Made by a program: the position numbers and the translations under genes
The notes under the pieces: model-generated
What the model was told of the DNA's origin: nothing
Databases searched by the model: none
Seen by the model: the letters and a program-made list of their open reading frames with translations, nothing else
Source of the DNA: an uncultured delta proteobacterium
Lineage (GTDB): Bacteria; Desulfobacterota; Binatia; Binatales; Binataceae
DNA: 64,000 nucleotides
Direction of reading: 5' to 3'
Assembly: GCA_963842085.1 (NCBI GenBank)
Contig: CAWJET010000001.1
Span: 448,001-512,000 of the forward strand
Part shown: positions 34,227 to 64,000 of the stretch, one piece after another
Position numbering within the stretch: position 1 is the stretch's first letter
Layout: every line of letters begins with the position of its first letter

Positions 34227-34411
34227 ATTCTCGCGACACCGAAAATTCGAGGTTCATGGCGGGCAGGGTGCCGAACTGAAAGCGAATTCATTCTCTGGAC
34301 GATGTTAGCTGGTCTCGACACGAAATTTCTCAAGCAATCGCGGAGGTTTTCCTTTGGACAGACTTCTCGCGACACCGGCGGTTCGAATCCACCCCGCTCC
34401 GCCAGGCAGTC
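34227..34411 (+). repeat. 185-bp element with internal direct repeat and tRNA-like 3' end; inverted copy at 56569-56751
   Basis: TTCTCGCGACACCG occurs twice; ends GGTTCGAATCCACCCCGCTCCGCCAGGCAGTC. Confidence 0.88.
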
Positions 34412-52600: not shown

Positions 52601-53038
52601 AAATCGTGCAGTGTCTTCGACCCGCTGTACTCACTCGCTGACCACAACACCTGAACATATCCAGCGCAGTATCTCCGGTTTGTCGCGAATGCCCAGCCCG
52701 GACCTCGGGTGTCGTGTTCAGCGCGGCGATCGCCTGCTTCAAATGAAGCTCGGCTTCCTGGGCGGCGCCGCGCATCATTCCCTGCCGGCCTGCGCGGTCC
52801 ATGTACTGGACCGCTTTCTAGGCGTTCGAGCTGCGGCCGTACTGGTAAGCGAGTTGGCTCAGATGGTCATCGATCGATTGAGCGCACGCGATCCTGACGA
52901 CCGATCAGTTGATGGCGCCGCTGCCCGCGCCTGCACTTGGCAAGAAACAGTCGGAGCTGGCTGCTTAGCTCTTTGGCGTTCAGCCAGTACCTAAATGAGT
53001 AGCGGCTATGCTAAGAAAGCGGCGGGGAGGGCCTTCAC

Positions 53039-53980
53039 ATGCTAAGCCGTGCAGCTAGTCGAATAGTGAAGAACGAGGCGATGGACAGTGGCAGGTGGTC
53101 GGCCTACAAACCGCGCTCCGGCGATATCATCATCGGCACCGCGCCAAAGGTGGGTACCCATTGGACGTTGCAAATAGTCAGCCTGCTCGTATTTCAATCA
53201 CCTGAGCCGAGAGACTTAGGGTTTGCGCCGTGGCTCGATGCGCAATTCCTGGCGCCGCTCGACGAGGTGCTCAAAAAGATCGAGTCTCAAGCTCATCGCA
53301 GGATTCTCTTCTCGCATCTGCCGTTTGACGCCATGCCGATTTACGACGAGGTTCAGTACATCCACGTAGCACGCGATGGCCGCGACGCCTGCATGTCACT
53401 GCTAAACCACGTTAGCAACATGACTACCGACCATTTCAATCGGATCGCTGAGAACCGTCGCGACGGCGACACTATCGAGCGTGCGATGAGGGAATCGCCC
53501 AGGGAGCCGCGCGAGTTTTTTCTTCATTGGATCGAGGCGGGCACCAGCCGTGATATAGATCGTGCCGACTGGTTCTTCGAAATCGAGCGCTCCTACTGGT
53601 CGGAGCGTCATCGCCCAAATCTGTTGCTGGTACACTTCAACGATTTGAAGGCCAACCTGTCAGATGAGATGCGACATATCTCCGCGTTTCTTGACATTCC
53701 GGTGAATGAGGCGATTTGGCCGAAGCTCGTCGAGGCAGCGACGTTCGACTCGATGAAGCAAAATGGTGCGCAGATTCTTGCGAAACTCGAACACCTATTC
53801 CGAGGCGGCCACGAGACATTTCTCCATCAGGGCACGAACGAGCGATGGCGCGATGTGCTGACCGAAGCCGATCTGGCGCTTTACGAAAAGCACGCGCATA
53901 CCGCACTTTCGCTGGGACTTTTCAACTGGCTGCGCAACGGCCGGCGCGTCGCAGGCGACCCGGTCTCGATGCCGGATTGA
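53039..53980 (+). CDS. Sulfotransferase domain protein
   Basis: APKVGTHW (PAPS loop), SHLP, RDGRDACMS, ATFDSMK. Confidence 0.9.
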   Translation: MLSRAASRIVKNEAMDSGRWSAYKPRSGDIIIGTAPKVGTHWTLQIVSLLVFQSPEPRDLGFAPWLDAQFLAPLDEVLKKIESQAHRRILFSHLPFDAMPIYDEVQYIHVARDGRDACMSLLNHVSNMTTDHFNRIAENRRDGDTIERAMRESPREPREFFLHWIEAGTSRDIDRADWFFEIERSYWSERHRPNLLLVHFNDLKANLSDEMRHISAFLDIPVNEAIWPKLVEAATFDSMKQNGAQILAKLEHLFRGGHETFLHQGTNERWRDVLTEADLALYEKHAHTALSLGLFNWLRNGRRVAGDPVSMPD

Positions 53981-54007
53981 GAAGCGCGCTTGTTGCCTCT
54001 CAAGTGA

Positions 54008-54100
54008 TGGCAGCGTGGTGTCTTCTATCAGATCTATCCACGATCTTTTTCGATTCGAACCGCGACGGGATCGGCGATCCCGACGGCATCACTGCCAAGC

Positions 54101-54101
<1 letters not shown>
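54008..54101 (+). pseudogene. GH13 alpha-glucosidase N-terminal fragment
   Basis: WQRGVFYQIYPRS..DSNRDGIGD..GITAKL. Confidence 0.75.
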
Positions 54102-54890
<789 letters not shown>

Positions 54891-55344
54891 AACGACCTCC
54901 TTCAAGAAAATGCGAGCGCCTGGACCGCTTTCGAGTGATGACGATTAGAACGAGGTAGCCTCGCCTCGCTCCAGGCTTTCGCTGCGTCAGCCGGGTCCCA
55001 GAACGGACCAAATGCGCCTATCTTTTTGCACACCTCTTGAGCCTCGAGCAAACAGTTGGGAAATGTGGAAGAGTTCATCCCACGTTTCCAGACTCAGTTC
55101 AACCGCTGTGGCTATCTTTCGACGGTCTTCGCGGCAGACGACTGTCCTGAAAACGACCGTTTCCCGGACAAAAACAAAACGCAACAGAATTCGTGTCTTG
55201 TAAGTCCGGAAAATCTGTCCGTCAATTCTAACTCCCATCTCCGCTATCAATTCCTCTTTCGAGTGCGTCGCAGAGGCGAAGGCTGCGGCCTCTGTGATTC
55301 TCTCGCGAGCGAGCCGCTTTTCGTGACCGGTGCTGTGGGTCAGT

Positions 55345-56268
55345 TCATGTAGATCCGGATTGCCGAGCGCTCTCGCCCGCGACTTTCTCGCTGTAGAAGC
55401 GGTGAATATTGCTGGAGATGTATTCCAGGCAATCTTCGACAGCAAAATGACCTGAATCCAGGCGGTGCATCTCAGCCTTGGGCAGATCTTTCAAGTAGGC
55501 TTCTCCGCCCTCACGCGTAAAGAAGATGTCATCTTGCCCCCAGAAAATAATCGTCTTGGGTTGACGATCACGCAGCAACGATTGCCATTTCGGATACAGA
55601 GTTACGTTAGTACGGTAGTCATAGAACAAATCCAGTTGGACACGGCGTGCGTTGGGGCGCTCCATGAAGCGGAAGTCCATATTCCAGTTGTCTGGGCTGA
55701 TAAGCTCTGCCCTTTTGTGGCCATGAAGATAGACACCCTTGATCGCGTCGACTTCGAGGAACCCGGCGAGGGGCTTCTCGGTCTCGGGCGTCCGATTCTT
55801 CCAGAGGGCGCCGCGGAACCGGTCCCATGCGCTCGTAAAGCCGACTTCGTAGGCGTTGGTGTTCTGGATAATCAACCATTCAAGCCAATCGGGGTGGCGG
55901 GTCAGCACCCTGAAGCCAACCGGCCCGCCGTAATCCTGAGCGAACAAACCAAAATAATCGAAACCCTTCTGCTCTAAGAAGTTCTCTACGACCTCAGAGA
56001 TTTTATCAAAGGTGTAGGAAAATTTGGCCGGATCCGGCATGTCGCTGTTGCCGAAGCCGGGATAGTCCGGAGCAATGACATGAAACCGATCGGCGAGAGC
56101 GAGGATCAAGTTGCGGTACTGATGCGAGGATGCCGGAAACCCATGAAGCAGTACTAGCTTTGGACTGGCGGGATTGCCGGCCTCTCGGTAGGCAATACCG
56201 AGGCCGTCAACGTTGAGAGCCTTGTATGTAACCTCAGTGGAGGGGTCGGCTGGAGAAATGAGACTCAT
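55345..56268 (-). CDS. Alpha/beta hydrolase (epoxide hydrolase/dehalogenase-like)
   Basis: LLHGFPASS, PDYPGFG, QDYGGP, SGHF. Confidence 0.92.
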   Translation of the reverse strand: MSLISPADPSTEVTYKALNVDGLGIAYREAGNPASPKLVLLHGFPASSHQYRNLILALADRFHVIAPDYPGFGNSDMPDPAKFSYTFDKISEVVENFLEQKGFDYFGLFAQDYGGPVGFRVLTRHPDWLEWLIIQNTNAYEVGFTSAWDRFRGALWKNRTPETEKPLAGFLEVDAIKGVYLHGHKRAELISPDNWNMDFRFMERPNARRVQLDLFYDYRTNVTLYPKWQSLLRDRQPKTIIFWGQDDIFFTREGGEAYLKDLPKAEMHRLDSGHFAVEDCLEYISSNIHRFYSEKVAGESARQSGST

Positions 56269-56568
56269 AACCTTTCTCCTTATGTTCAGCCGGGAAATAA
56301 TTCCGGGGGTTTTCTCAAATTTACCACTGCGCGGTGCCGTTTTCCAGCCAATGGCGGCACGCGGCCGTCAGTTCTCGGTTGGCGGCTGAGTCCTAAATCT
56401 AAATGATCGGATATGCGAGAGTCTGCACCATCTGCCAAACAATCCAGTCGCGGCATCTACGCTGTGAGCCGCCCCGCGACCGCTCCGTAAACTCCGCGCG
56501 CTGTCTACCCTCTAGTTTTGTCCAGGAACACGGTCCGGAACCTAATCCGGAGACAACGGTTTCGCTAG

Positions 56569-56751
56569 GACTGCTTGCTGGAGCGGGGCGGATTCGAACC
56601 GCCGGTGTCGCGAGAAGTCTTTGCCAAGGAAAACCTCGGCGATTGCTTGAGAATTTCCTGTCGAGCTCAGCTAACATCGTCCGGAGAATGAACTCGCCTT
56701 CAGTTCGGCACCCTGCCCGCCATGAACCTCGAATTCCGGTGTCGCGAGAAT
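56569..56751 (-). repeat. 185-bp tRNA-like-ended element downstream of the recombinase
   Basis: Inverted homolog of 34227-34411. Confidence 0.88.
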
Positions 56752-56862
56752 GCGGCTGGGTTGCGAGACTTCCTTCCGACGAAACTCAAGTCGTCCAAGG
56801 CCGCTGGTCGAAGGGCCAATCGGGTGAGCACGAGCCGAAAACGGCCGCTGGTCAGTTGCCGA

Positions 56863-58551
56863 TCATCGGCAGCGTAGGATCTGGCGCTGTTTGGTCCATT
56901 CCAGCGGGAGCGGCGCGGTGTGTTTCAGCGCTTCGGCGGTGAGCGTTGCAGGCTGCGATCCATCACATATGCTTTGGACAATGTCGGGCGCGAGCAGCGC
57001 CAGCGGGATCAGGCGTTTTACGTAACTGTCATAGACGCCTTCCCGGTTGGCGATCTCTCTGATGGAAGCGGTTCTTCCCGAGGCTAATTCATGAAACCAT
57101 CGATGGCCGCGCGCGATCGCCTTGAGCAGGGCGGGGTCGGAGCGCGCGGCACGCGCCGATTCGCCCTCGATGACCAGCCTGATTTCCAACCCGCGTCGCT
57201 TCATCTCGAGCGGTATGAACCGTGTCATCGTCAAGCTGGAAGCGTCGGGGGTCTCGATCGGACCCGTGATCAGTCTCTTCAGATTCAGCGACACCCGGAT
57301 GCCGCCGCGCCCCAGCTGAACTCGATCGATCAGGTTGCTGAGATGGTCGGCGACCTCGGCGTCATCCGCGAGTTGTTTGCTTTTCGTCTCTGCTGTGTCG
57401 AGCGCCGACTGCAACTCGCCGATCGGCACGCCAGCGTCCTGCAGGGTTGCGGCGATCGTGGGCCGGTCTCCGAGCATCTGCCGACTCGCGCTTGCGACTG
57501 CGCACTCGATCTCGGGTGCTGGCAGACGCCACCCATTCTTCGCGTTCTCCGACGACCCCTGGATCACTTTGCGCGAGACGTAGTACCGGTAGCGGCGCGC
57601 GCCCTTGTTGGTGCCGCACGCGTAGAGCGGCTCACCACCTTCGTCGAACAGCTTTCCCGCCAGCGGACTCGACACCGCTCCTCGGTCGATGGTTCGATGA
57701 TGCGCCGCTTGCTCTCGCAGTTGGTGTTGCACGCGTTCCCAGAGCTCTCGATCCACGATTGCCCGATGCTGGCCGGGATGCCGGACCTTGCGGTGCCGGA
57801 TCTCGCCCAAGTAAATCGGGTTGGCGAGCAGTTCATAGAGCGCACCGCGACTGAACGGCTGTCCTCCAGATTTGATCCCTTTGCGGGAGAGCCGGTTTTT
57901 CGACAGGATCCCGTCGCGACTCAGTTCTTCTTGGAGCAGCCGAACCGAGCGAAGTTCGAGATACCGTTCGAAGATGTGGCGGACTGTCGCGGCTTCCGCC
58001 TGATTGACGACCAGACGCCGCTCGCACCAGTCATAACCCAGCGGCACCCTGCCGCCCATCCAGATGCCCTTCTTCTTGGAGGCGGCAATCTTGTCGCGGA
58101 TGCGCTCGCCGGTCACCTCGCGTTCGAACTGGGCGAAGGAGAGCAGCACGTTCAGTGTGAGCCGCCCCATCGAGGTAGTGGTATTGAACTGTTGGGTGAC
58201 GGCCACGAATGAGACGCCGTGGCCGTCGAAGACCTCGACCATTTTCGCGAAGTCCGCCAGCGAACGGGTCAGGCGGTCCACTTTATAGACCACGACTACG
58301 TCGATGAGCTTGTCGCGGATGTCGGATAGCAAGCGCTGCAATCCGGGTCGTTCCATGGTGCCACCGGAGAGCCCGCCGTCGTTATAAGCGGTCTTGACGA
58401 GCTGCCAGCCCTCGCCCGTCTGACTTTTGACAAAGGACTCGCATGCGTCGCGCTGCGCATGGAGCGAGTTGAAGTCCTGCTCCAGTCCTTCTTCCGACGA
58501 CTTTCGAGTGTAGATCGCACAACGTAGCGGCGAGGAGTTAGGCAGCTCCAT
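56863..58551 (-). CDS. Large serine recombinase (resolvase + recombinase domains)
   Basis: CAIYTRKSSEEGL, VYKVDRLTRS, GRLTLNVLLSFAQFERE, GGRVPLGY, NPIYLG. Confidence 0.95.
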   Translation of the reverse strand: MELPNSSPLRCAIYTRKSSEEGLEQDFNSLHAQRDACESFVKSQTGEGWQLVKTAYNDGGLSGGTMERPGLQRLLSDIRDKLIDVVVVYKVDRLTRSLADFAKMVEVFDGHGVSFVAVTQQFNTTTSMGRLTLNVLLSFAQFEREVTGERIRDKIAASKKKGIWMGGRVPLGYDWCERRLVVNQAEAATVRHIFERYLELRSVRLLQEELSRDGILSKNRLSRKGIKSGGQPFSRGALYELLANPIYLGEIRHRKVRHPGQHRAIVDRELWERVQHQLREQAAHHRTIDRGAVSSPLAGKLFDEGGEPLYACGTNKGARRYRYYVSRKVIQGSSENAKNGWRLPAPEIECAVASASRQMLGDRPTIAATLQDAGVPIGELQSALDTAETKSKQLADDAEVADHLSNLIDRVQLGRGGIRVSLNLKRLITGPIETPDASSLTMTRFIPLEMKRRGLEIRLVIEGESARAARSDPALLKAIARGHRWFHELASGRTASIREIANREGVYDSYVKRLIPLALLAPDIVQSICDGSQPATLTAEALKHTAPLPLEWTKQRQILRCR

Positions 58552-59017
58552 CGCGAGCCTCCTCAGCGGGCTTCCGCAGACCAAAGAACAAGGGACCTGA
58601 CCAGCGTGTTCCAGTGATCAGACGGGCGACCTCGGAGAGCGAACCGTAGCGTTTGCCGCGATAGACGACCCCATCATCGTGCACCGTGACCCGATGCGCG
58701 TTGCCCCGCCACTCGCGAATGAGCAAAGTACCGGGAGCTGCTTTGCGAGCCAGATTTGGTCTCGCGCGGTGAGATGCCAGGTCGTCGGCGACGCGTTCGA
58801 GGAGCCGGCGCGTCGCCGGCGCCAGGCCACCGAACTCTCTCTCCTGCAAGCGGTAAGCGATCGCCCGAGTGAGCAACTCGCGGCTGATCCGTGGAGGCGG
58901 TTCGGTGTCGTACAATTCGCGCCAGCGCGATTTCAAGTTCCTGAGGTCCAAGCTGGCCAAGGCCGCGATTTCGGCGGAGATCCGGTCGGCCTGACCGAAG
59001 GAAGATTGCTCTCTCAT
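58538..59017 (-). CDS. DUF2924 family protein
   Basis: IAYRLQE..GGL, PGTLLIREWRG, SLSEVARLITGTRWSGPLFFGL; overlaps the recombinase start. Confidence 0.9.
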   Translation of the reverse strand: MREQSSFGQADRISAEIAALASLDLRNLKSRWRELYDTEPPPRISRELLTRAIAYRLQEREFGGLAPATRRLLERVADDLASHRARPNLARKAAPGTLLIREWRGNAHRVTVHDDGVVYRGKRYGSLSEVARLITGTRWSGPLFFGLRKPAEEARDGAA

Positions 59018-59175
59018 CTGCTTCCTCCTGATTCTCCGGGCCGACATACACATGGCTCGTTGTCCGCCACGCAGCCAGTCCTGCGCGGCTATCGTAGAGG
59101 CGATGCAGCGGCGAAAACCGGTATCCGAGAGGCCGAGCGCTCTCGGGCAAAGAAACCCAGTGCGGCCCCGATTCA

Positions 59176-59646
59176 GTGGATGCGTTACGCCGACTTGAGC
59201 TATCTGTCACCGCCGCTATGGCTGCAGATCAAAGACGCGCTCGAGCAGTTCGCCAGGTCTCCGAAGGCGAGCCGAACTGCCGTCCGCGGAAGATCGTACA
59301 CAAGACCAAACGGCCGGAGCGAGTTGAGCGCGTGATGGAGGTCCGCGCCTTCGTGCTTAAGCTGCTCGCTGAGCAAGGTCGCTGGACGACGCTGTTCCAC
59401 GGTCCGCAGGTGCTGCGCTTCGAAAATTCGCGCTTCTTAATCATGTTCTACATCAAGCCACCCGTGCCGTTGGAACTGCGTGAGCGGTTCCGCATCGGTC
59501 CGCTCGGGTGCGGCCTCTATGGCTTGGAACTCTGGGACAAGCAGATCGGAAAAGTCCTGAATATAGACTGGCAGACCGCGGGGGCGGTGGCGCGGATCGT
59601 CACCTTTAAGCGCGGTGACTGGGAAGAACGCCTGCTGATGGGCTGA
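59176..59646 (+). CDS. Hypothetical protein
   Basis: 156-aa ORF ending GKVLNIDW..FKRGDWE. Confidence 0.55.
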   Translation: MDALRRLELSVTAAMAADQRRARAVRQVSEGEPNCRPRKIVHKTKRPERVERVMEVRAFVLKLLAEQGRWTTLFHGPQVLRFENSRFLIMFYIKPPVPLELRERFRIGPLGCGLYGLELWDKQIGKVLNIDWQTAGAVARIVTFKRGDWEERLLMG

Positions 59647-59850
59647 GTCTCCCGTTCCATCGCGTCCGCTGCAGGCAGTCTGCACTCGTCGCTTCAGATT
59701 CCTCTGAACAGCTTTGACATCGAGATCTTGAGCGCGACTCCGATCACCTCGATTTCCGGAGCGCGACATTGCACTGTTGATCGGACGATCACGATAGAGT
59801 CGAGACCACACTTTGCGGCTACCGCGATGCAAAATCACGACGTACTAATT

Positions 59851-59890
59851 TGGCGAAGCAGGAGGGATTCGAACCGCGGTGTCACGAGAA
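59851..59890 (-). repeat. tRNA-3'-like repeat (third copy of the 185-bp element's end)
   Basis: TTCTCGTGACACCGCGGTTCGAATCCCTCCTGCTTCGCCA. Confidence 0.8.
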
Positions 59891-59957
59891 ATCTGCTATC
59901 GAAGAAAGAGGCGCGGGCACTTCCCGATGCGCTCGCACGCGGCTTCCCAGTCGCTGC

Positions 59958-61712
59958 TCATTTGTTTTGCTCCCACTTCACGAAGCACCCAGGATGCCAA
60001 TGCTTCCCGTTCCTTTCCATCGCAGCACCAAAGATCTGCTGCTTGCAACCGCCGCAAAAACGCACGGCGACCAGCGGCGCCGCTGGCGGTTCGGGTTCGT
60101 CCGGGCCCCAGGGGTCGCCGCCCTTCTGCAAGACGCGTTGTACCCGCTCGTACTCATCCTGCATCGTCGTGTCAGGCACCGGCGGTGGTAGGGATGGATC
60201 CTTTTCCCGGGCCCGCGCTTGTTCCGCCAGTTCTTCCGTAAACACGCTGATCCCGGGACGACGATCAGCGAATGCGAGCATTAGCGCCTCTGCGCGGTCG
60301 GGCGATTTGATGCCGCGCTTCTCCATCGTCGACTTCTTCTCCATCTCGATGAGGCCGCGCAGATTGATCTCGAACCTAAGCGACGCCAACTGCGTGATCA
60401 TGAGGTCGTCCTCGAGTCCCGACACTTTCCCCTGCTCGAAGCGCTCCCGCAGCGACCAGTACAGCTCGTCCTTGAGCCTGGCGAATCGATCAGGGAACCG
60501 GGTCGCTTCACCTACATTTACCGGAGTCACGCTGTGGAAACCGGCCACCTCGAGCGCCTGTCCGAAGTACTCGCCGGGGCCGGCCGAATCATAGTTGATC
60601 TGCGCGACGTAACGCTTGTAGGGCCCGAGGAAGTTGATGACCTGCCCGGTCGAGTGACCGTACCAAGAGCGCCAATTGACGATGCGCCCAGCCTTGGTGC
60701 GAATTACGCAGACCGTCTCGTCACCACCGCCAGCCGCGACGTCAATGCCAACAAACAATCCTTTCTCGTCGCCCTCGACGACGATTGGTTCGCGCGCGGC
60801 CTCGAGCCACTTGAGCGCGATCAGCGCATCCTCGGCCTGCAGCGGGAACTGGCCACGGACTTTCCAAGCCCAGAGCGGGCCGTCTTCGCCCCACTTGACT
60901 AGGTTTTCTTGTGCCCACAGCGGAGTCGCAAGATATGGCCGCGGCGCATACGCGATCGCGGGGTGATCTACCGGCAAGGTCCGCAGAAGGTCGACGATGT
61001 GCTCCTTTCCTTTCCGTTGTCTGACCGGCAAGCTGACATCCATTTGCTCGGCTATCTCACGGAGCTTCTCGAAGTTAGGCGTATCGAACGCGTCGATCGT
61101 AAACGTCTGCCAGTTCGCGCGATTCGTGGTGAATGCATCGTAGAAAGGGCCGCCTGGCGACGACGGATTCCCGAGCAGCAGGATCCGCACGTCGCCGCCA
61201 GCCGCCGCGCCGGAGATAGCGTCATACACTTCGGCTGGTATGCCCGGGGCCTCATCCAGGATGAACAACAGATGGGGAGCCTTGAAGCCGTGAAACTTAA
61301 TGCCCATATCCGACTTGTCCGTGCTGAAGCCCAGCCCGTAGTTGTTGGACCCAATTCTCAGTGATGCCACTCCTGGCTGCGGATATTTCATTCCGCTGCC
61401 GAGGGCGACTGGATTTCGCAACGCCTTCCGAATCTCGCCCCACATAATTTCTTCGACTTGTCGCTGTCCCGGAGCGGTATTAATTGCGATGCCATCTGGG
61501 AAGTAGGTAATGAACCAAAGAATAAGTTGAGCGGCCGTATAGGTCTTTGACGATGAATGGCAGCCCTTGACGGCGACGCGCGCCCGCGGCTTTGCGATCG
61601 CATTAGCCATCGCGATCTGCGTAGACCACCACGGCTTATCGCCGAGCATGTGCTGTGCGAACCAGACGGGATCCTGAATGGACGCGAGCAGTCGCTCCTC
61701 AGCCCCTGTCAT
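59958..61712 (-). CDS. Phage-type terminase large subunit with C-terminal zinc-finger tail
   Basis: KGCHSSSKT (Walker A-like), FILDEA (Walker B), LGNPS, GIDVA..D, SPDRAEAL nuclease motifs. Confidence 0.88.
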   Translation of the reverse strand: MTGAEERLLASIQDPVWFAQHMLGDKPWWSTQIAMANAIAKPRARVAVKGCHSSSKTYTAAQLILWFITYFPDGIAINTAPGQRQVEEIMWGEIRKALRNPVALGSGMKYPQPGVASLRIGSNNYGLGFSTDKSDMGIKFHGFKAPHLLFILDEAPGIPAEVYDAISGAAAGGDVRILLLGNPSSPGGPFYDAFTTNRANWQTFTIDAFDTPNFEKLREIAEQMDVSLPVRQRKGKEHIVDLLRTLPVDHPAIAYAPRPYLATPLWAQENLVKWGEDGPLWAWKVRGQFPLQAEDALIALKWLEAAREPIVVEGDEKGLFVGIDVAAGGGDETVCVIRTKAGRIVNWRSWYGHSTGQVINFLGPYKRYVAQINYDSAGPGEYFGQALEVAGFHSVTPVNVGEATRFPDRFARLKDELYWSLRERFEQGKVSGLEDDLMITQLASLRFEINLRGLIEMEKKSTMEKRGIKSPDRAEALMLAFADRRPGISVFTEELAEQARAREKDPSLPPPVPDTTMQDEYERVQRVLQKGGDPWGPDEPEPPAAPLVAVRFCGGCKQQIFGAAMERNGKHWHPGCFVKWEQNK

Positions 61713-62251
61713 TTATTTCCCTTCTTCTCGGCAGCTCCTTGCAGCCGGCGCAACGCCTCGATCGGGATCAACGCCTCCCCGTCCTTGCCGGTCACCGCCA
61801 CCTTCGCCGGCGCCTTGTAGCCATTGATTTCAGCCTTATGCGCCAGCACCTTGACGCCGACCTCGACGCTGCGCGGATCTCCTTTGCGGATTCCTGACTG
61901 CAGCGACAGGAACATGTCTTCACAGCGTTCGGTGTCGAGCTTGCGAAGCTCAACCGCCTCGGCGTTGGGAAGACGAAGGATTCCGCGCCGAAACGCCCGG
62001 TGAACGGCCTGAGCAGAAATCCTGTACTCTTCTGTAAACCGCGCGGGTTCCGGAATGGGCACCATCGCTTGCTGCTGCCCATGTGCGACACCAACGATGT
62101 GATCTGCAATCATTTGGTAGCTCATGCCGAGCCGCTTCAGGTGTAGCGTCTCGGCCTCGACCCAGCGCGCGATGATACTTCGGTTGGTCAGTTGTCTCGG
62201 CTTGTTGGTCTGGCGAATGGTTCCGTCGGAGTTGCGTGGCTTGTTACGCAT
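61709..62251 (-). CDS. Terminase small subunit-like HTH protein
   Basis: LKRLGMSYQMIAD HTH, VTGKDG tail, coupled to TerL. Confidence 0.7.
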   Translation of the reverse strand: MRNKPRNSDGTIRQTNKPRQLTNRSIIARWVEAETLHLKRLGMSYQMIADHIVGVAHGQQQAMVPIPEPARFTEEYRISAQAVHRAFRRGILRLPNAEAVELRKLDTERCEDMFLSLQSGIRKGDPRSVEVGVKVLAHKAEINGYKAPAKVAVTGKDGEALIPIEALRRLQGAAEKKGNK

Positions 62252-62252
62252 C

Positions 62253-63506
62253 TCACTTCACCAGCTCGGGCTTCAGCCCGAGAACCGAGAGACGCTCAAG
62301 CGTCACCGCCACGTATGCGGGGTCGACTTCAACACCGTAGCCGACGCGATCGAGCTGGTGCGCGGCGAGTAATGTAGAACCGGATCCGCAGAATGGATCG
62401 TACGCCAATTCACCGGCCCTGCTGCTGTTGGCGATCATCCGCGCGATCAGTGCGACCGGCTTGGTGGTGGGATGAAACTCACTGGTCGCTGGCTTGTCGA
62501 CCTGAAAGACCGTGTCCTGTGTCCTATCGTCGCAGAAATAGTGCGGCCCGTTTTCGAGCCATCCATACAAGATCGGCTCATGGCGATAGTGATAGTCGCA
62601 CCGGCCGATCACCATCTGCTGCTTGACCCAAACCAGGTGGTGCTTGAAGGCAAATCCAGCGCGTTCGAAAGCCTCGATGAATCCGCTCAGCAGAGGTCCG
62701 GCTGCGACAGTCGCGTAACATGTCGCTCCCCGTTGCGAGTGTTCTATCGCGAGCGAAAGCGCGTCTCTGAACATCGCGTGCGTCTCGCTCGGCGAGAGCG
62801 AATCGTTGGCAATGCTCTTCTTTACAGAAGTGCCCTTGTGCAGTTGTTGGAGAGCATTATTCTTGCTCTGGACGTAATCGATTCCGTATGGCGGATCAGT
62901 CCAGGTGGATCGAATCAAAGGACCGCCGTCGCGCCAGAGTTTCGCGACCTCTGCCTTGTTGGTGCTGTCGCCACACACGAGCCGGTGTGACCCGATTCGC
63001 CAGAGTTGGTTGCGCGCTGTGCACCACTTTTTCTGCAGTTCAGCCGCTCGTTCGATCTGCGGTTCCGGGTCCAGGATTTCGACCGGCGGCCGAAGCGCCA
63101 GCGCATCTTGTTCAGCTATGCGCGTGAACAACTGTTCGACCGCCTTGCTGTCAGTGCGAACATTGTTCAGAAGTGCCTGAAGCCGCTCCGAGTCGCTCTC
63201 GGCCATGCTGGCCAATGGATCTAGAGTCAGCAGAATCTTGTCGGCTTCCTCTTCAGAGACATCCAGTATCAGGACCGGAACTATCGCCGACGGTGTTGTC
63301 TCCGCACGGAGGTGACCGTCGATCAGTTGCAGCCGACCATCTGCTAATTCCCTTGCAATCAGCGCATCCGCATACCCAACCTCTGCAAGTAACCCGCGCA
63401 GCGCAGCAGCTTGGGCCTTCGGATGGACTCGCCAGTTTTTTGGATTTGCGAGTAAATCTCTCGCGCGTACTCGTCTCAGCTCTTTAATCCGATCTCGTAT
63501 CACCAT
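62253..63506 (-). CDS. ParB-like N-terminus + N6/N4 DNA methyltransferase
   Basis: NPKNWRVH..LIDGHLR; HRLVCGDS, TDPPY, HPTTKP, DPFCGSGSTL. Confidence 0.92.
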   Translation of the reverse strand: MVIRDRIKELRRVRARDLLANPKNWRVHPKAQAAALRGLLAEVGYADALIARELADGRLQLIDGHLRAETTPSAIVPVLILDVSEEEADKILLTLDPLASMAESDSERLQALLNNVRTDSKAVEQLFTRIAEQDALALRPPVEILDPEPQIERAAELQKKWCTARNQLWRIGSHRLVCGDSTNKAEVAKLWRDGGPLIRSTWTDPPYGIDYVQSKNNALQQLHKGTSVKKSIANDSLSPSETHAMFRDALSLAIEHSQRGATCYATVAAGPLLSGFIEAFERAGFAFKHHLVWVKQQMVIGRCDYHYRHEPILYGWLENGPHYFCDDRTQDTVFQVDKPATSEFHPTTKPVALIARMIANSSRAGELAYDPFCGSGSTLLAAHQLDRVGYGVEVDPAYVAVTLERLSVLGLKPELVK

Positions 63507-63542
63507 CTTCCGCCTCCTCCTGCATCCGCGTTTCCCACCTTC

Positions 63543-63598
63543 AAAAAAAACGAGCCCAGCTCGACAACCGCTTTTCTTGCGGCGTCGGACTGGGCTCG
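63543..63598 (-). terminator. Intrinsic terminator-like hairpin just upstream of the MTase-terminase operon
   Basis: CGAGCCCAG...CTGGGCTCG stem followed by T8 on the minus strand, ~37 bp before the ATG. Confidence 0.7.
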
Positions 63599-64000
63599 AG
63601 TCTTTCGATACCCTTGTACTCTTAGATTTTCGTTAAGACGCTCACATGCTTAGTTCCCGCCCTGCAAACTCAGACTAGCAGGACTGGTTGACCGAGTCGA
63701 ATGCCGATCCTGTGAGTGTTGTCGGCAAATCGGCGATCGTAAGATTGACCAGAGCAATGGGATCGAACCCAATGGGTCTAGCTCATTTGTATCGCCAGAT
63801 GGCTTTCACGAGCGCCGATCCTCTTATTGCCTCGTCCAGCTGATCGTGAGTGTAAGCCGGCCATAGGCGACCACGGCTTCGAGCGTGGACTTCTTGGACA
63901 GGTCGTCGGTTAATCCCAGGAGCGACTTAGTTGAGGACGCACAAACCAGACGTATTCAGCTCGGCCGCTCGCAGCCTCTCCCAAGTACCCTATATTAATG

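Follow-up and report, generated by a model that had tools for sequence, protein, structure and literature searches.

The window, a stretch of 64,000 nucleotides from the genome of a soil bacterium of the Binataceae, holds at its right end a composite island of 7.6 kb, which extends from 56575 to about 64188. Six genes are present: those for a methylase, a TerS-like protein, a large terminase subunit (TerL), a DUF2924 protein and a large serine recombinase (LSR) lie on the - strand, and a small ORFan lies on the opposite (+) strand. The gene set listed in the original prediction (coupled ParB-methylase, TerS-like and TerL genes, an opposite-strand ORF, DUF2924 and LSR) was thus confirmed. From its sequence, the island appears better read as two joined parts: a packaging cassette of 4.3 kb, composed of a leader with a terminator, the methylase-TerS-TerL operon and a tRNA-Ser-like end; and an LSR unit of 3.3 kb (56575-59890), composed of the ORFan, DUF2924, the LSR and a tRNA-Ser-like fragment at the far end. 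Host genes flank the island on both sides: alpha/beta hydrolase and sulfotransferase genes on the left, carboxylesterase, TetR, sigma-70 and LpxD genes on the right. The latter lie past position 64000, where portal and capsid genes had been proposed as a check, and none was found. The island lies in a variable, accessory region of the genome; recombinase fragments are also found elsewhere in the wider region, at window 64450-64671 and at C1:519954-520193.

The cassette begins with a conserved non-coding leader on the - strand (63507..64000, continuing to about 64188 beyond the window), defined by homology to the related locus L094: nucleotide identity is 80% over 723 columns, with indels which are not multiples of three. 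No Rfam family was assigned to it by an Rfam search. The left cassette edge, at window 64188, is common to the limit of the L094 homology and to contig ends in two runs, X4 and X5, whose contigs both stop at L001:10188, which corresponds to the same position. In these runs, the depth of island contigs is 10-15 and that of flank contigs 5-8, a weak hint in favour of a mobile element. Among the assembled contigs mapped to the island, none spans an excision or circle junction, and no empty insertion site was found in relatives. The module originally placed between 56569 and 63600 is present, but its end had been set too short, as the conserved stretch reaches about 64188.

Within the leader, a hairpin resembling an intrinsic terminator, followed by eight T residues (63543..63598, - strand), ends 36 nt before the methylase ATG. 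It is nearly identical in L085, L091 and L094, while L112 and L020 feature a different hairpin with a T-run at the corresponding place; a terminator precedes the operon in 6 of the 13 upstream regions read. In L218 and L227, cI-like repressors (HTH + S24) are found beside the cassette. The first gene (62253-63506, - strand) encodes a ParB-like N-terminal domain fused to an N6/N4 DNA methyltransferase (PF01555, 7e-22; phrog_498, 1e-85); its N-terminal residues 10-120 match ParB-like PHROGs at 1e-6 to 1e-7. The PADLOC model MTase_II is matched at 1e-66, without a partner, and no restriction enzyme lies beside the gene: the methylase is an orphan.

The methylase stop is one nucleotide from the start of the next gene (61709-62251, - strand), whose stop in turn overlaps the TerL start as ATGA. 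Its product, of 180 aa, has phrog_645 as its sole family match and no Pfam or NCBIfam family. A structure model (pLDDT 78) features helices 23-40 and 45-56, arranged as a helix-turn-helix, and then long helices. The BFVD entries retrieved with the model (E 1e-4 to 1e-3; TM only about 0.3) are HTH proteins or carry the name "terminase small subunit"; four of the top 12 matches are named TerS. Among PDB entries, G20c TerS is retrieved only at E 3-8. A single phage TerS, from Arthrobacter phage Altadena, is matched in sequence (24% identity, E 2e-4). These weak sequence and structure matches, together with the position directly before TerL, suggest a TerS-like protein.

TerL (59958-61712, - strand; 584 aa) matches phrog_2 at 2.5e-31, and no Pfam terminase model at E 0.01. 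Over residues 5-493 it is 27-33% identical to annotated phage terminases; by tblastn 377 phage records are matched, 73 of which cover at least 80% of the query, the best at 33% identity. Matches in PDB include a large terminase (1.5e-8) and the Sf6 gene 2 protein. In an alignment of 39 sequences, columns K56, D153/E154, D324, D375 and D472 (window numbering) are invariant or nearly so: we take them to be the Walker A lysine, the Walker B Asp-Glu pair and the nuclease aspartates. The C-terminal tail carries a CxxC...HxxC zinc ribbon. By homology and by intact motifs of both the ATPase and the nuclease domain, the protein is predicted to be a large terminase subunit; no portal is encoded with it, either in the locus or in the genome. 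Among the loci compared, the nearest TerL genes (L126/L210, 57-60% identical) sit in a portal-bearing, decaying prophage, and a portal also follows several further TerL genes of the same 24-row clade, so that the motor derives from ordinary phage terminases. TerL relatives 71-83% identical also exist, beyond the loci compared. In more distant relatives (L022-L026, L031, L033, L079; TerL 33-35% identical), the order is methylase, small protein, TerL, portal, scaffold/protease and major head protein.

In the second part of the island, the LSR gene (56863-58584, - strand) encodes 573 aa from a TTG start, a later ATG being the likely start. The protein matches PF00239 (2.9e-39), PF07508 (7.4e-17) and phrog_95 "integrase" (1e-100), while a zinc-ribbon domain is not reported at E 0.01; resolvase and Recombinase domains, in a protein of more than 500 aa, indicate a phage-type integrase. 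Fourteen matches to it are found in the genome, the full-length paralogues being 57-61% identical. The DUF2924 gene (58538-59053, - strand; PF11149, 1.1e-47) encodes a protein that usually accompanies this LSR type on its upstream side: of nine matches in the genome, seven are directly upstream of an LSR match, and about seven other DUF2924-LSR pairs occur without a terminase. The ORFan (59176-59646, + strand) would encode 156 aa, or 103 aa if translation starts at the ATG at 59335; by GC content per codon position (GC1/2/3 = 0.62/0.39/0.78), it looks coding. No family was found by profile search, no match elsewhere by tblastn, and none in the Atlas.

ARAGORN finds no tRNA gene in the island. 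Fragments similar to the 3' end of tRNA-Ser are present on the - strand at 56575..56616, some 250-290 nt past the LSR stop, and at 59850..59890, 68-108 nt past the TerL stop and in the same direction as TerL; such fragments give three matches, versus 0.22 expected. A 173-nt block holding the first one (56580-56751) is found again, 91% identical and inverted, next to LSR paralogue C. Similar fragments lie 240-290 nt from the stops of paralogues A, B and C, and a real tRNA-Ser(cga) is located 256 nt away from paralogue G: tRNA-Ser is the probable site used by this LSR type. Orientations differ among the four. A strict form of the motif, occurring only 10 times genome-wide on both strands, is located 65-130 nt after TerL in seven loci (the window, L084, L085, L086, L091, L093 and L213), and the mutual homology of L084, L085 and L086 ends right after the tRNA-like "...GCTCCGCCA", about 100 nt past TerL. 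The second fragment marks the junction of cassette and LSR unit. The island had been described as bounded by a tRNA-like repeat: the repeat brackets the LSR unit only, its second copy lying between TerL and the ORFan, and the LSR unit may accordingly be a separate insertion.

In the genome (4.93 Mb) no match was found to PF04860, PF05133 or PF05065, nor to any of 47 profiles derived from the structural genes which portal-linked relatives carry; as a positive control, nine portal-linked loci gave 2-12 matches each to the same 47 profiles. The island contains neither replication nor lysis genes, no primase-replicase or AlpA/Stl/MerR regulator is encoded among its six genes, and the portal, capsid, tail and lysis genes of an intact prophage are missing from the element.

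The TerS-type gene was found in 42 distinct loci (48 before removal of identical copies). In 38 of them it is directly followed by the window's TerL family, and in 38 it is preceded by a methylase. None of the 42 loci, 18 of which extend about 4 kb or more past TerL, gave a structural-profile match: the genes after TerL belong to the host or to insertion sequences (FtsX, SDR, aminotransferase, P450, ABC transporter, Mrr, IS110, rve). A comparison of neighborhoods, suggested as a check for TerL, revealed a recurrent methylase-TerS-TerL unit. The claim that the element is not a plain prophage is supported by the host genes to its left and right, by the absence, genome-wide, of portal and capsid genes of the families tested, and by the 42 loci free of structural matches. 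The expectation that would have contradicted it, TerL homologs normally followed by a portal, applies to the nearest relative and to several others, but not to the 42 TerS-type loci.

Of the family's 165 genomes, 39 carry the TerS type, which is present in 23 of the 96 of good quality; matches per genome reach seven. L225 and L226, found in one genome, are 85-89% identical over 4.5 kb, with unlike flanks. Low dN/dS values (TerL 0.09-0.29; TerS 0.09-0.17; methylase 0.07-0.16) show purifying selection, and hence that the function of the cassette is kept. TerL is in pieces in 7 of 38 loci, and several methylases likewise, indicating that many copies are decaying. The cassette is a discrete, recurrent unit; it seems to be self-contained and to have spread and diversified in the Binataceae without virion genes.

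An LSR or DUF2924 gene is present in 13 of the 42 TerS-type loci, in three orientations. With cassette and LSR or DUF2924 on one strand, the latter is downstream in the window, L089, L231 and L240, and upstream in L207, L218 and L213 (as it is in L115 and L142, related loci outside the 42); in L220, L221, L222 and L229 it is downstream and convergent. In L089 the gene order of the window recurs, at 47-63% protein identity. No recombinase is found in the other 29 within the sequence compared, which for several includes 9 kb on both sides; an adjacent LSR is thus not needed by the cassette.

The island was compared to known systems. PICI have a core of integrase, AlpA/Stl/MerR regulator, primase-replicase, capsid-morphogenesis gene and terS, and cfPICI have a capsid, a head-tail adaptor/connector and terL in addition (PMC10085698). 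The island of the window resembles both, being a small integrated island where an integrase is joined to terminase genes of the kind that steer packaging into helper capsids, and shares terL with cfPICI. It differs from the PICI described there, since it carries a serine integrase with DUF2924 and a TerS-like gene, but no primase-replicase, capsid-related gene or AlpA/Stl-type regulator, and from cfPICI in the absence of capsid and connector genes. PICMI are elements of about 6 kb, inserted next to fis, with int, alpA and primase as core and no terS homologue, packaged as concatemers in full-size heads (PMC10803314); by that account, an island of 6-7 kb can fill a phage head. The island is likewise minimal in size and free of capsid-remodelling genes, but its gene set is the mirror image of theirs: packaging and integration genes, no replication gene. 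The start of a phage late operon (ParB-like methylase, TerS, TerL, portal) has the same order up to TerL, after which the operon ends in the window and in all 42 TerS-type loci. In a Wolbachia prophage region, a DUF2924 protein is noted with a recombinase immediately downstream (PMC10299305), and DUF2924 is stated to match in part the RAMA DNA-binding domain (PMC11342252). Gene pair and order are as in the island; the Wolbachia module serves a full prophage, while the cargo of the island is a packaging operon only, with putative att sites.

Gene transfer agents (GTAs) retain head and tail genes. The cassette resembles GTAs and domesticated defective prophages in having packaging genes under purifying selection in a bacterial chromosome; it differs in that no head or tail genes were found in its genome with the families and profiles tested. 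As for known anti-phage defence, only generic methylase models of PADLOC 2.0 are matched.

Because the same compact cassette occurs in dozens of related genomes, it looks more like a small mobile element riding on phages than like a broken prophage. Our preferred reading, held tentatively and at somewhat less than even confidence, is that the island is a helper-dependent, satellite-like packaging element, composite of cassette and LSR unit. Its anatomy fits the satellite-like or packaging-hijacking element originally proposed; excision, a helper and encapsidation are what we infer beyond it. The island would stay integrated, with the terminator keeping the packaging operon off; a divergent regulator, cI-like or with a zinc finger, might act as off-switch instead of the terminator in related copies. 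A late regulator of the helper phage would turn the operon on, TerS would mark the island DNA, and TerL would cut it and fill empty heads of the helper with it, as multimers or by packaging that starts in the chromosome. In the next cell, the methylase would protect the packaged DNA, and the recombinase, with DUF2924, would insert it at a tRNA-Ser-like site.

The two parts could instead be unrelated neighbors, a resident cassette (immobile, or otherwise moved) at whose tRNA-Ser-like end an independent ORFan-DUF2924-LSR element was inserted. Such an origin, which we consider unlikely, would agree with tRNA-like fragments bracketing the LSR unit alone, with a genome where about seven further DUF2924-LSR pairs accompany a single TerL of the window kind, with the 29 of 42 cassettes lacking a nearby LSR, with the duplicated unit of L225/L226 being the cassette alone, and with the variable orientation of LSR and cassette. 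Yet LSR/DUF2924 genes lie within a few kb in 13 of 42 loci, about 10 times the expectation (about 8 copies per 4.9 Mb, 20-kb stretch; a rough estimate, the genomes being related and not independent), L089 repeats the order of the window, and a cassette end serving as recombinase target would still link the two functionally.

Alternatively, terminase and methylase may form a module kept by the host for its own benefit, such as sabotage of the packaging of invading phages or transduction of the nearby chromosome. Purifying selection, the many cassettes without integrase, the accessory, variable genome region and a terminator-controlled operon able to respond to phage late regulators are all compatible with this; still, we judge it quite improbable, because the patchy distribution (39 of 165 genomes) and the up to seven copies per genome look selfish, about one fifth of TerL copies are broken, and PADLOC 2.0 defence models recognize the methylase generically, and neither TerS, TerL, ORFan, DUF2924 nor LSR. 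Least credible, and already disfavoured, is a plain remnant: a prophage with this recombinase, on its way out, which lost all but its late-operon start and integration genes. The nearest TerL does belong to a prophage itself decaying, recombinase fragments do lie nearby, and replication and lysis genes are absent. Random decay, however, does not account for 38 of 42 loci that share three intact genes and their edges, for dN/dS values of 0.07-0.29 or for several copies per genome, and no structural-gene fragment is found in any of the 42 loci.

Known satellites follow different strategies: PICI redirect the helper's terminase via terS, cfPICI bring a whole capsid, and PICMI carry only excision and replication genes. 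If the satellite-like reading is true, an island with a full packaging motor as sole cargo would be a fourth one. It is possible, though doubtful, that such "motor-only" satellites form a new class of phage hyperparasites, which would carry TerS, TerL and a protective methylase, without replication, capsid or lysis genes, would be moved by a tRNA-Ser-targeting serine recombinase, would be common and multicopy in Binataceae-like soil bacteria, and would fill helper heads with their own or neighboring chromosomal DNA. L006, L007 and L126, prophages found in the same bacterial family and equipped with related terminases, are candidate helpers. Those who use serine recombinases as tools may find this one, with its tRNA-Ser-like sites, of interest. 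Being compact, sharply bounded and present in about one quarter of the family genomes, the 4.3-kb cassette is easy to seek in virus-particle metagenomes; its IMG/VR matches are metagenome predictions, which do not prove encapsidation. Binataceae-like soil bacteria are largely uncultured, and we know of no phages infecting them: for these bacteria the cassette would offer a concrete, testable handle on gene transfer, and motor-only satellites, if real, would drive transduction among uncultured soil lineages, a role so far unrecognised.

The source genome (G000; two contigs, C1 and C2, 4.93 Mb) carries, at 56.8-63.5 kb of the window (C1:448001-512000), five minus-strand genes: a 417-aa methylase (PF01555; phrog_498, 1e-85; ParB-like N-terminus by PHROGs), a small, TerS-like protein (180 aa, unmatched in Pfam and NCBIfam), a TerL of 584 aa, a DUF2924 protein and a 573-aa large serine recombinase (LSR). 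The first three are packed as one operon: methylase and small protein are 1 nt apart, and the latter overlaps TerL by ATGA. On the opposite strand, between TerL and DUF2924, lies a 156-aa ORFan (59176-59646) with coding-like codon-position composition; family, relative and Atlas match were all sought, and none was found. Two other reading frames, one of 179 aa at 56403-56942 and one of 175 aa beyond 64000, look spurious by composition. The gene content of the original prediction, a terminase-only module lacking portal and capsid and bounded by a tRNA-like repeat, is confirmed, with two corrections to its anatomy, concerning the repeat and the right edge.

Judged from its sequence, TerL is a real terminase homologue, as indicated by its matches to 377 phage records (24-33% identity) and to a solved large-terminase nuclease domain (1.5e-8), and by ATPase and nuclease columns invariant across a 39-sequence TerL alignment. 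Its nearest relatives in protein sequence (P0002-P0005) are 71-83% identical. A C-terminal tail of 80-90 aa (residues about 500-584; window 59958-60200), ending in CxxC...HxxC, weakly matches LIM (E 0.003). Some portal-less relatives have it, as does the portal-linked group L135, and many others lack it; as L135 also carries one, a C-terminal zinc ribbon is ruled out as a marker of portal-less terminases. The 180-aa protein is probably TerS, on modest evidence. Its gene lies directly 5' of TerL, its predicted model (pLDDT 78) features a helix-turn-helix followed by long helices, its viral fold matches, down to E 1e-4, are called TerS or HTH protein, and one cultured-phage TerS matches at E 2e-4; in PDB nothing significant was found, by sequence or by fold.

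Profile searches for portal and capsid genes, extended past position 64000 and to the whole genome, found none, as the original prediction implied. PF04860, PF05133 and PF05065, positive in control genomes, have zero matches in the whole of G000, and the same holds for three pooled portal profiles and for 44 profiles from genes located 3' of TerL in portal-linked relatives; each of nine control loci was hit 2-12 times by structural profiles. The module is flanked on the left by an alpha/beta hydrolase and a sulfotransferase and on the right, outside the window, by host genes: a carboxylesterase, TetR, a sigma-70 factor and LpxD. When empty sites were sought in 30 relatives, including the unpublished genome G018, the left flank (53000-56560) was only fragmentarily matched, and no uninterrupted site was found. 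At 56449-56498 lies a short dispersed repeat of ~50 nt, with copies of 90-95% identity at numerous sites across several congeneric genomes; in two runs the flank contigs break off next to it.

No tRNA gene is found at the locus by ARAGORN. Sequences resembling the 3' ends of the tRNA-Ser genes of G000 are located at 56575-56616 and 59850-59890. Since the second copy sits 68-108 nt past the TerL stop, the pair brackets only the 3.3 kb unit formed by ORFan, DUF2924 and recombinase (the LSR unit), not the whole module, as had been proposed. The same motif, '...TTCGAATCC...GCTCCGCCA', is found 65-130 nt past TerL, co-directional, in L084, L085, L086, L091, L093 and L213, with degenerate versions in L089 and L221; in L084, L085 and L086 homology stops exactly there. 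In its strict form the motif has just 10 occurrences in G000, three of which are real tRNA or tmRNA ends. At the opposite side, homology with L094 begins at window 64188, where contigs from two soil runs of separate studies also stop. This shared edge, together with the motif past TerL, defines a packaging cassette (leader, methylase, TerS-like protein, TerL) of 4.3 kb, at ~59850-64188, and a composite of cassette and LSR unit of ~7.6 kb. The right edge lies outside the window, at ~64188. Consistent terminal inverted repeats flanking the cassette were not found.

A possible third, degenerate tRNA-like piece, spotted by eye only, is located in the leader (~63745-63775). A 58-nt tRNA-like block past the recombinase has copies, 88-93% identical, at 34343-34400, and more at C1:522820-522877, C1:547445-547505 and C1:539764-539799. 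They are spread over ~65 kb, suggesting a hot-spot for insertion or a row of island remnants. A recombinase pseudogene fragment (64450-64671; C1:512450-512671, plus strand), corresponding to residues 408-482 with two stop codons, is located beyond the window, just outside the cassette's 5' edge; a second one is found at C1:519954-520193.

The ~680 nt 5' of the methylase share 80% identity with L094 and, their indels not coming in multiples of three, read as a conserved non-coding leader. It ends, 36 nt ahead of the methylase ATG, in a long hairpin followed by T8, conserved in L085, L091 and L094; L112 and L020 feature a different hairpin and T-run at the corresponding place, and a terminator of this kind is found in 6 of the 13 upstream regions read. 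Comparison with Rfam gave no family, only chance-level rows, and a sigma-70 promoter scan gave 0 sites. The leader was also considered as a decayed regulator gene, and this was discarded, as no trace of the regulators adjoining other cassettes was found by tblastn. Such regulators include divergent cI-like HTH and S24 proteins, in L218 and L227. At 11 loci, in three clusters, a divergent gene directly 5' of the methylase encodes a shared C-terminal four-cysteine motif, which may be CGNR-like (among them L225:7511-8257, L208:6216-7004 and L153:262-1362). These proteins, two of which were examined and have no Pfam match, are possible candidates for cassette regulators.

Relatives were drawn from reference genomes, metagenomes (among the matches listed), IMG/VR and the window's own bacterial family; the closest include Candidatus Binataceae. 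Leaving out L001-L003, L164-L202 and L223, and counting identical TerS stretches once, 42 distinct loci carry the window's TerS type. The window's TerL family is directly 3' of it in 38 of them, and a methylase is 5' of it in 38. In a 39th locus, L219 (2848-4808), the same TerS type is followed by another TerL family, PF03237/PF17289 (Terminase_6N/6C), indicating that the two subunits have been swapped independently. None of the 42 loci, including the 18 with at least ~4 kb past TerL, has a structural-profile match, and host genes or insertion sequences are found downstream of TerL. Among the 13 of 42 loci that have a recombinase or DUF2924, three arrangements relative to the cassette are seen. 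In the window, L089, L231 and L240 the recombinase or DUF2924 is downstream and co-directional. In L207, L218 and L213, as also in L115 and L142, related loci not counted among the 42, it is upstream and co-directional. In L220, L221, L222 and L229 it is downstream and convergent.

Within the family, with unpublished G169 included among the positives, the TerS type is found in 39 of 165 genomes (23 of the 96 of good quality), with up to 7 matches per genome; two cassette copies in one genome are 85-89% identical over 4.5 kb, with unlike flanks. In the window's subgroup, dN/dS is 0.09-0.29 (TerL), 0.09-0.17 (TerS) and 0.07-0.16 (methylase). Broken genes are also found: TerL is in pieces in 7 of 38 loci, and several methylases likewise. 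In L214, from a genome of the same genus (G007), a DNA-hypermodification gene adjoins the packaging operon: a 5-hmdU DNA kinase (PF18723, 4e-110; L214:6988-8145), two genes past TerL.

G000 holds 14 recombinase and 9 DUF2924 matches, and only one TerL of the window's kind. About seven further DUF2924-LSR pairs, some broken, are 57-61% identical to the window's (C1:1260609, 523152, 921082 and about 3189-3192 kb; C2:1613955, 1678101 and 1681256). This LSR type very likely targets tRNA-Ser-like sequences: three paralogues (A, B and C) have a tRNA-Ser-like fragment 240-290 nt past the recombinase stop, paralogue G has a genuine tRNA-Ser(cga) at a distance of 256 nt, and L020 holds a recombinase fragment directly next to tRNA-Ser(gct). 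Fragment orientation differs among LSR copies.

A TerL tree of 109 rows was built by a quick IQ-TREE method, without five duplicate loci, rows with fewer than 420 query residues covered and rows below 30% identity. The window's TerL is sister (support 99) to that of L126/L210, a prophage in decay within the same bacterial family, where a portal gene follows TerL at a distance of 1.5 kb. In the surrounding 24-row clade (support 97), portal-linked L006, L007, L100 and L126 are mixed with portal-less loci; a second portal-less group (L018, L020, L212-L214, L162) is located elsewhere in the tree. Distant relatives, at 33-35% identity, feature methylase, small protein, TerL, portal, scaffold and major head protein in order. 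These portal-linked relatives indicate that the terminase comes from ordinary phages and that the same bacterial family holds candidate helpers. The possibility, raised with the original prediction, that homologous TerL genes are normally followed by a portal, making this a deleted prophage, is half borne out by these loci, but the TerS-defined cassette is never portal-linked. Random prophage decay is disfavored by four findings taken together: the recurrence, in dozens of loci, of the intact trio with the same edges, purifying selection, multiple copies per genome and repeated linkage to one LSR type.

The most economical reading of these sequences is that the composite may be a small selfish element with its own packaging motor, a helper phage supplying the heads; a terminator or repressor would control the packaging operon. 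The proposed satellite-like or packaging-hijacking nature is partly supported. PICMI (PMC10803314) are a precedent for an island of 6 kb that can fill full-size heads as concatemers. PICI and cfPICI (PMC10085698) share terminase genes with the composite, but there these always come with replication or capsid genes. A role kept by the host, in defense or transduction, is possible, although for defense no known model supports it. Contig depth over L001:4662-10188 (window 58662-64188) in soil runs X4 and X5, from two studies, is 10-15, versus 5-8 in the flanks; this ~2x excess is only a hint, which could reflect additional copies or additional genomic contexts, and depth of contigs measures either poorly. 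In assembled contigs, which would miss rare excised or circular forms, the joints at the locus are short skips, in other runs.

A second terminase island is found in G000, at ~11.4-23.7 kb of C2 (L223, C2:10001-30000). It contains a tRNA-Leu(tag) with a tyrosine integrase on either side, a primase/helicase-like gene (Toprim and AAA_25) and a TerL from another family (637 aa; PF03354 and PF20441), after which come host-like genes. It lacks portal and capsid genes, and it looks like a P4/PICI-style satellite carrying TerL.

A limited literature search found no printed account of such a cassette. The cassette is sharply defined and occurs widely in an uncultured lineage of soil bacteria; it is directly testable in virus-particle metagenomes.
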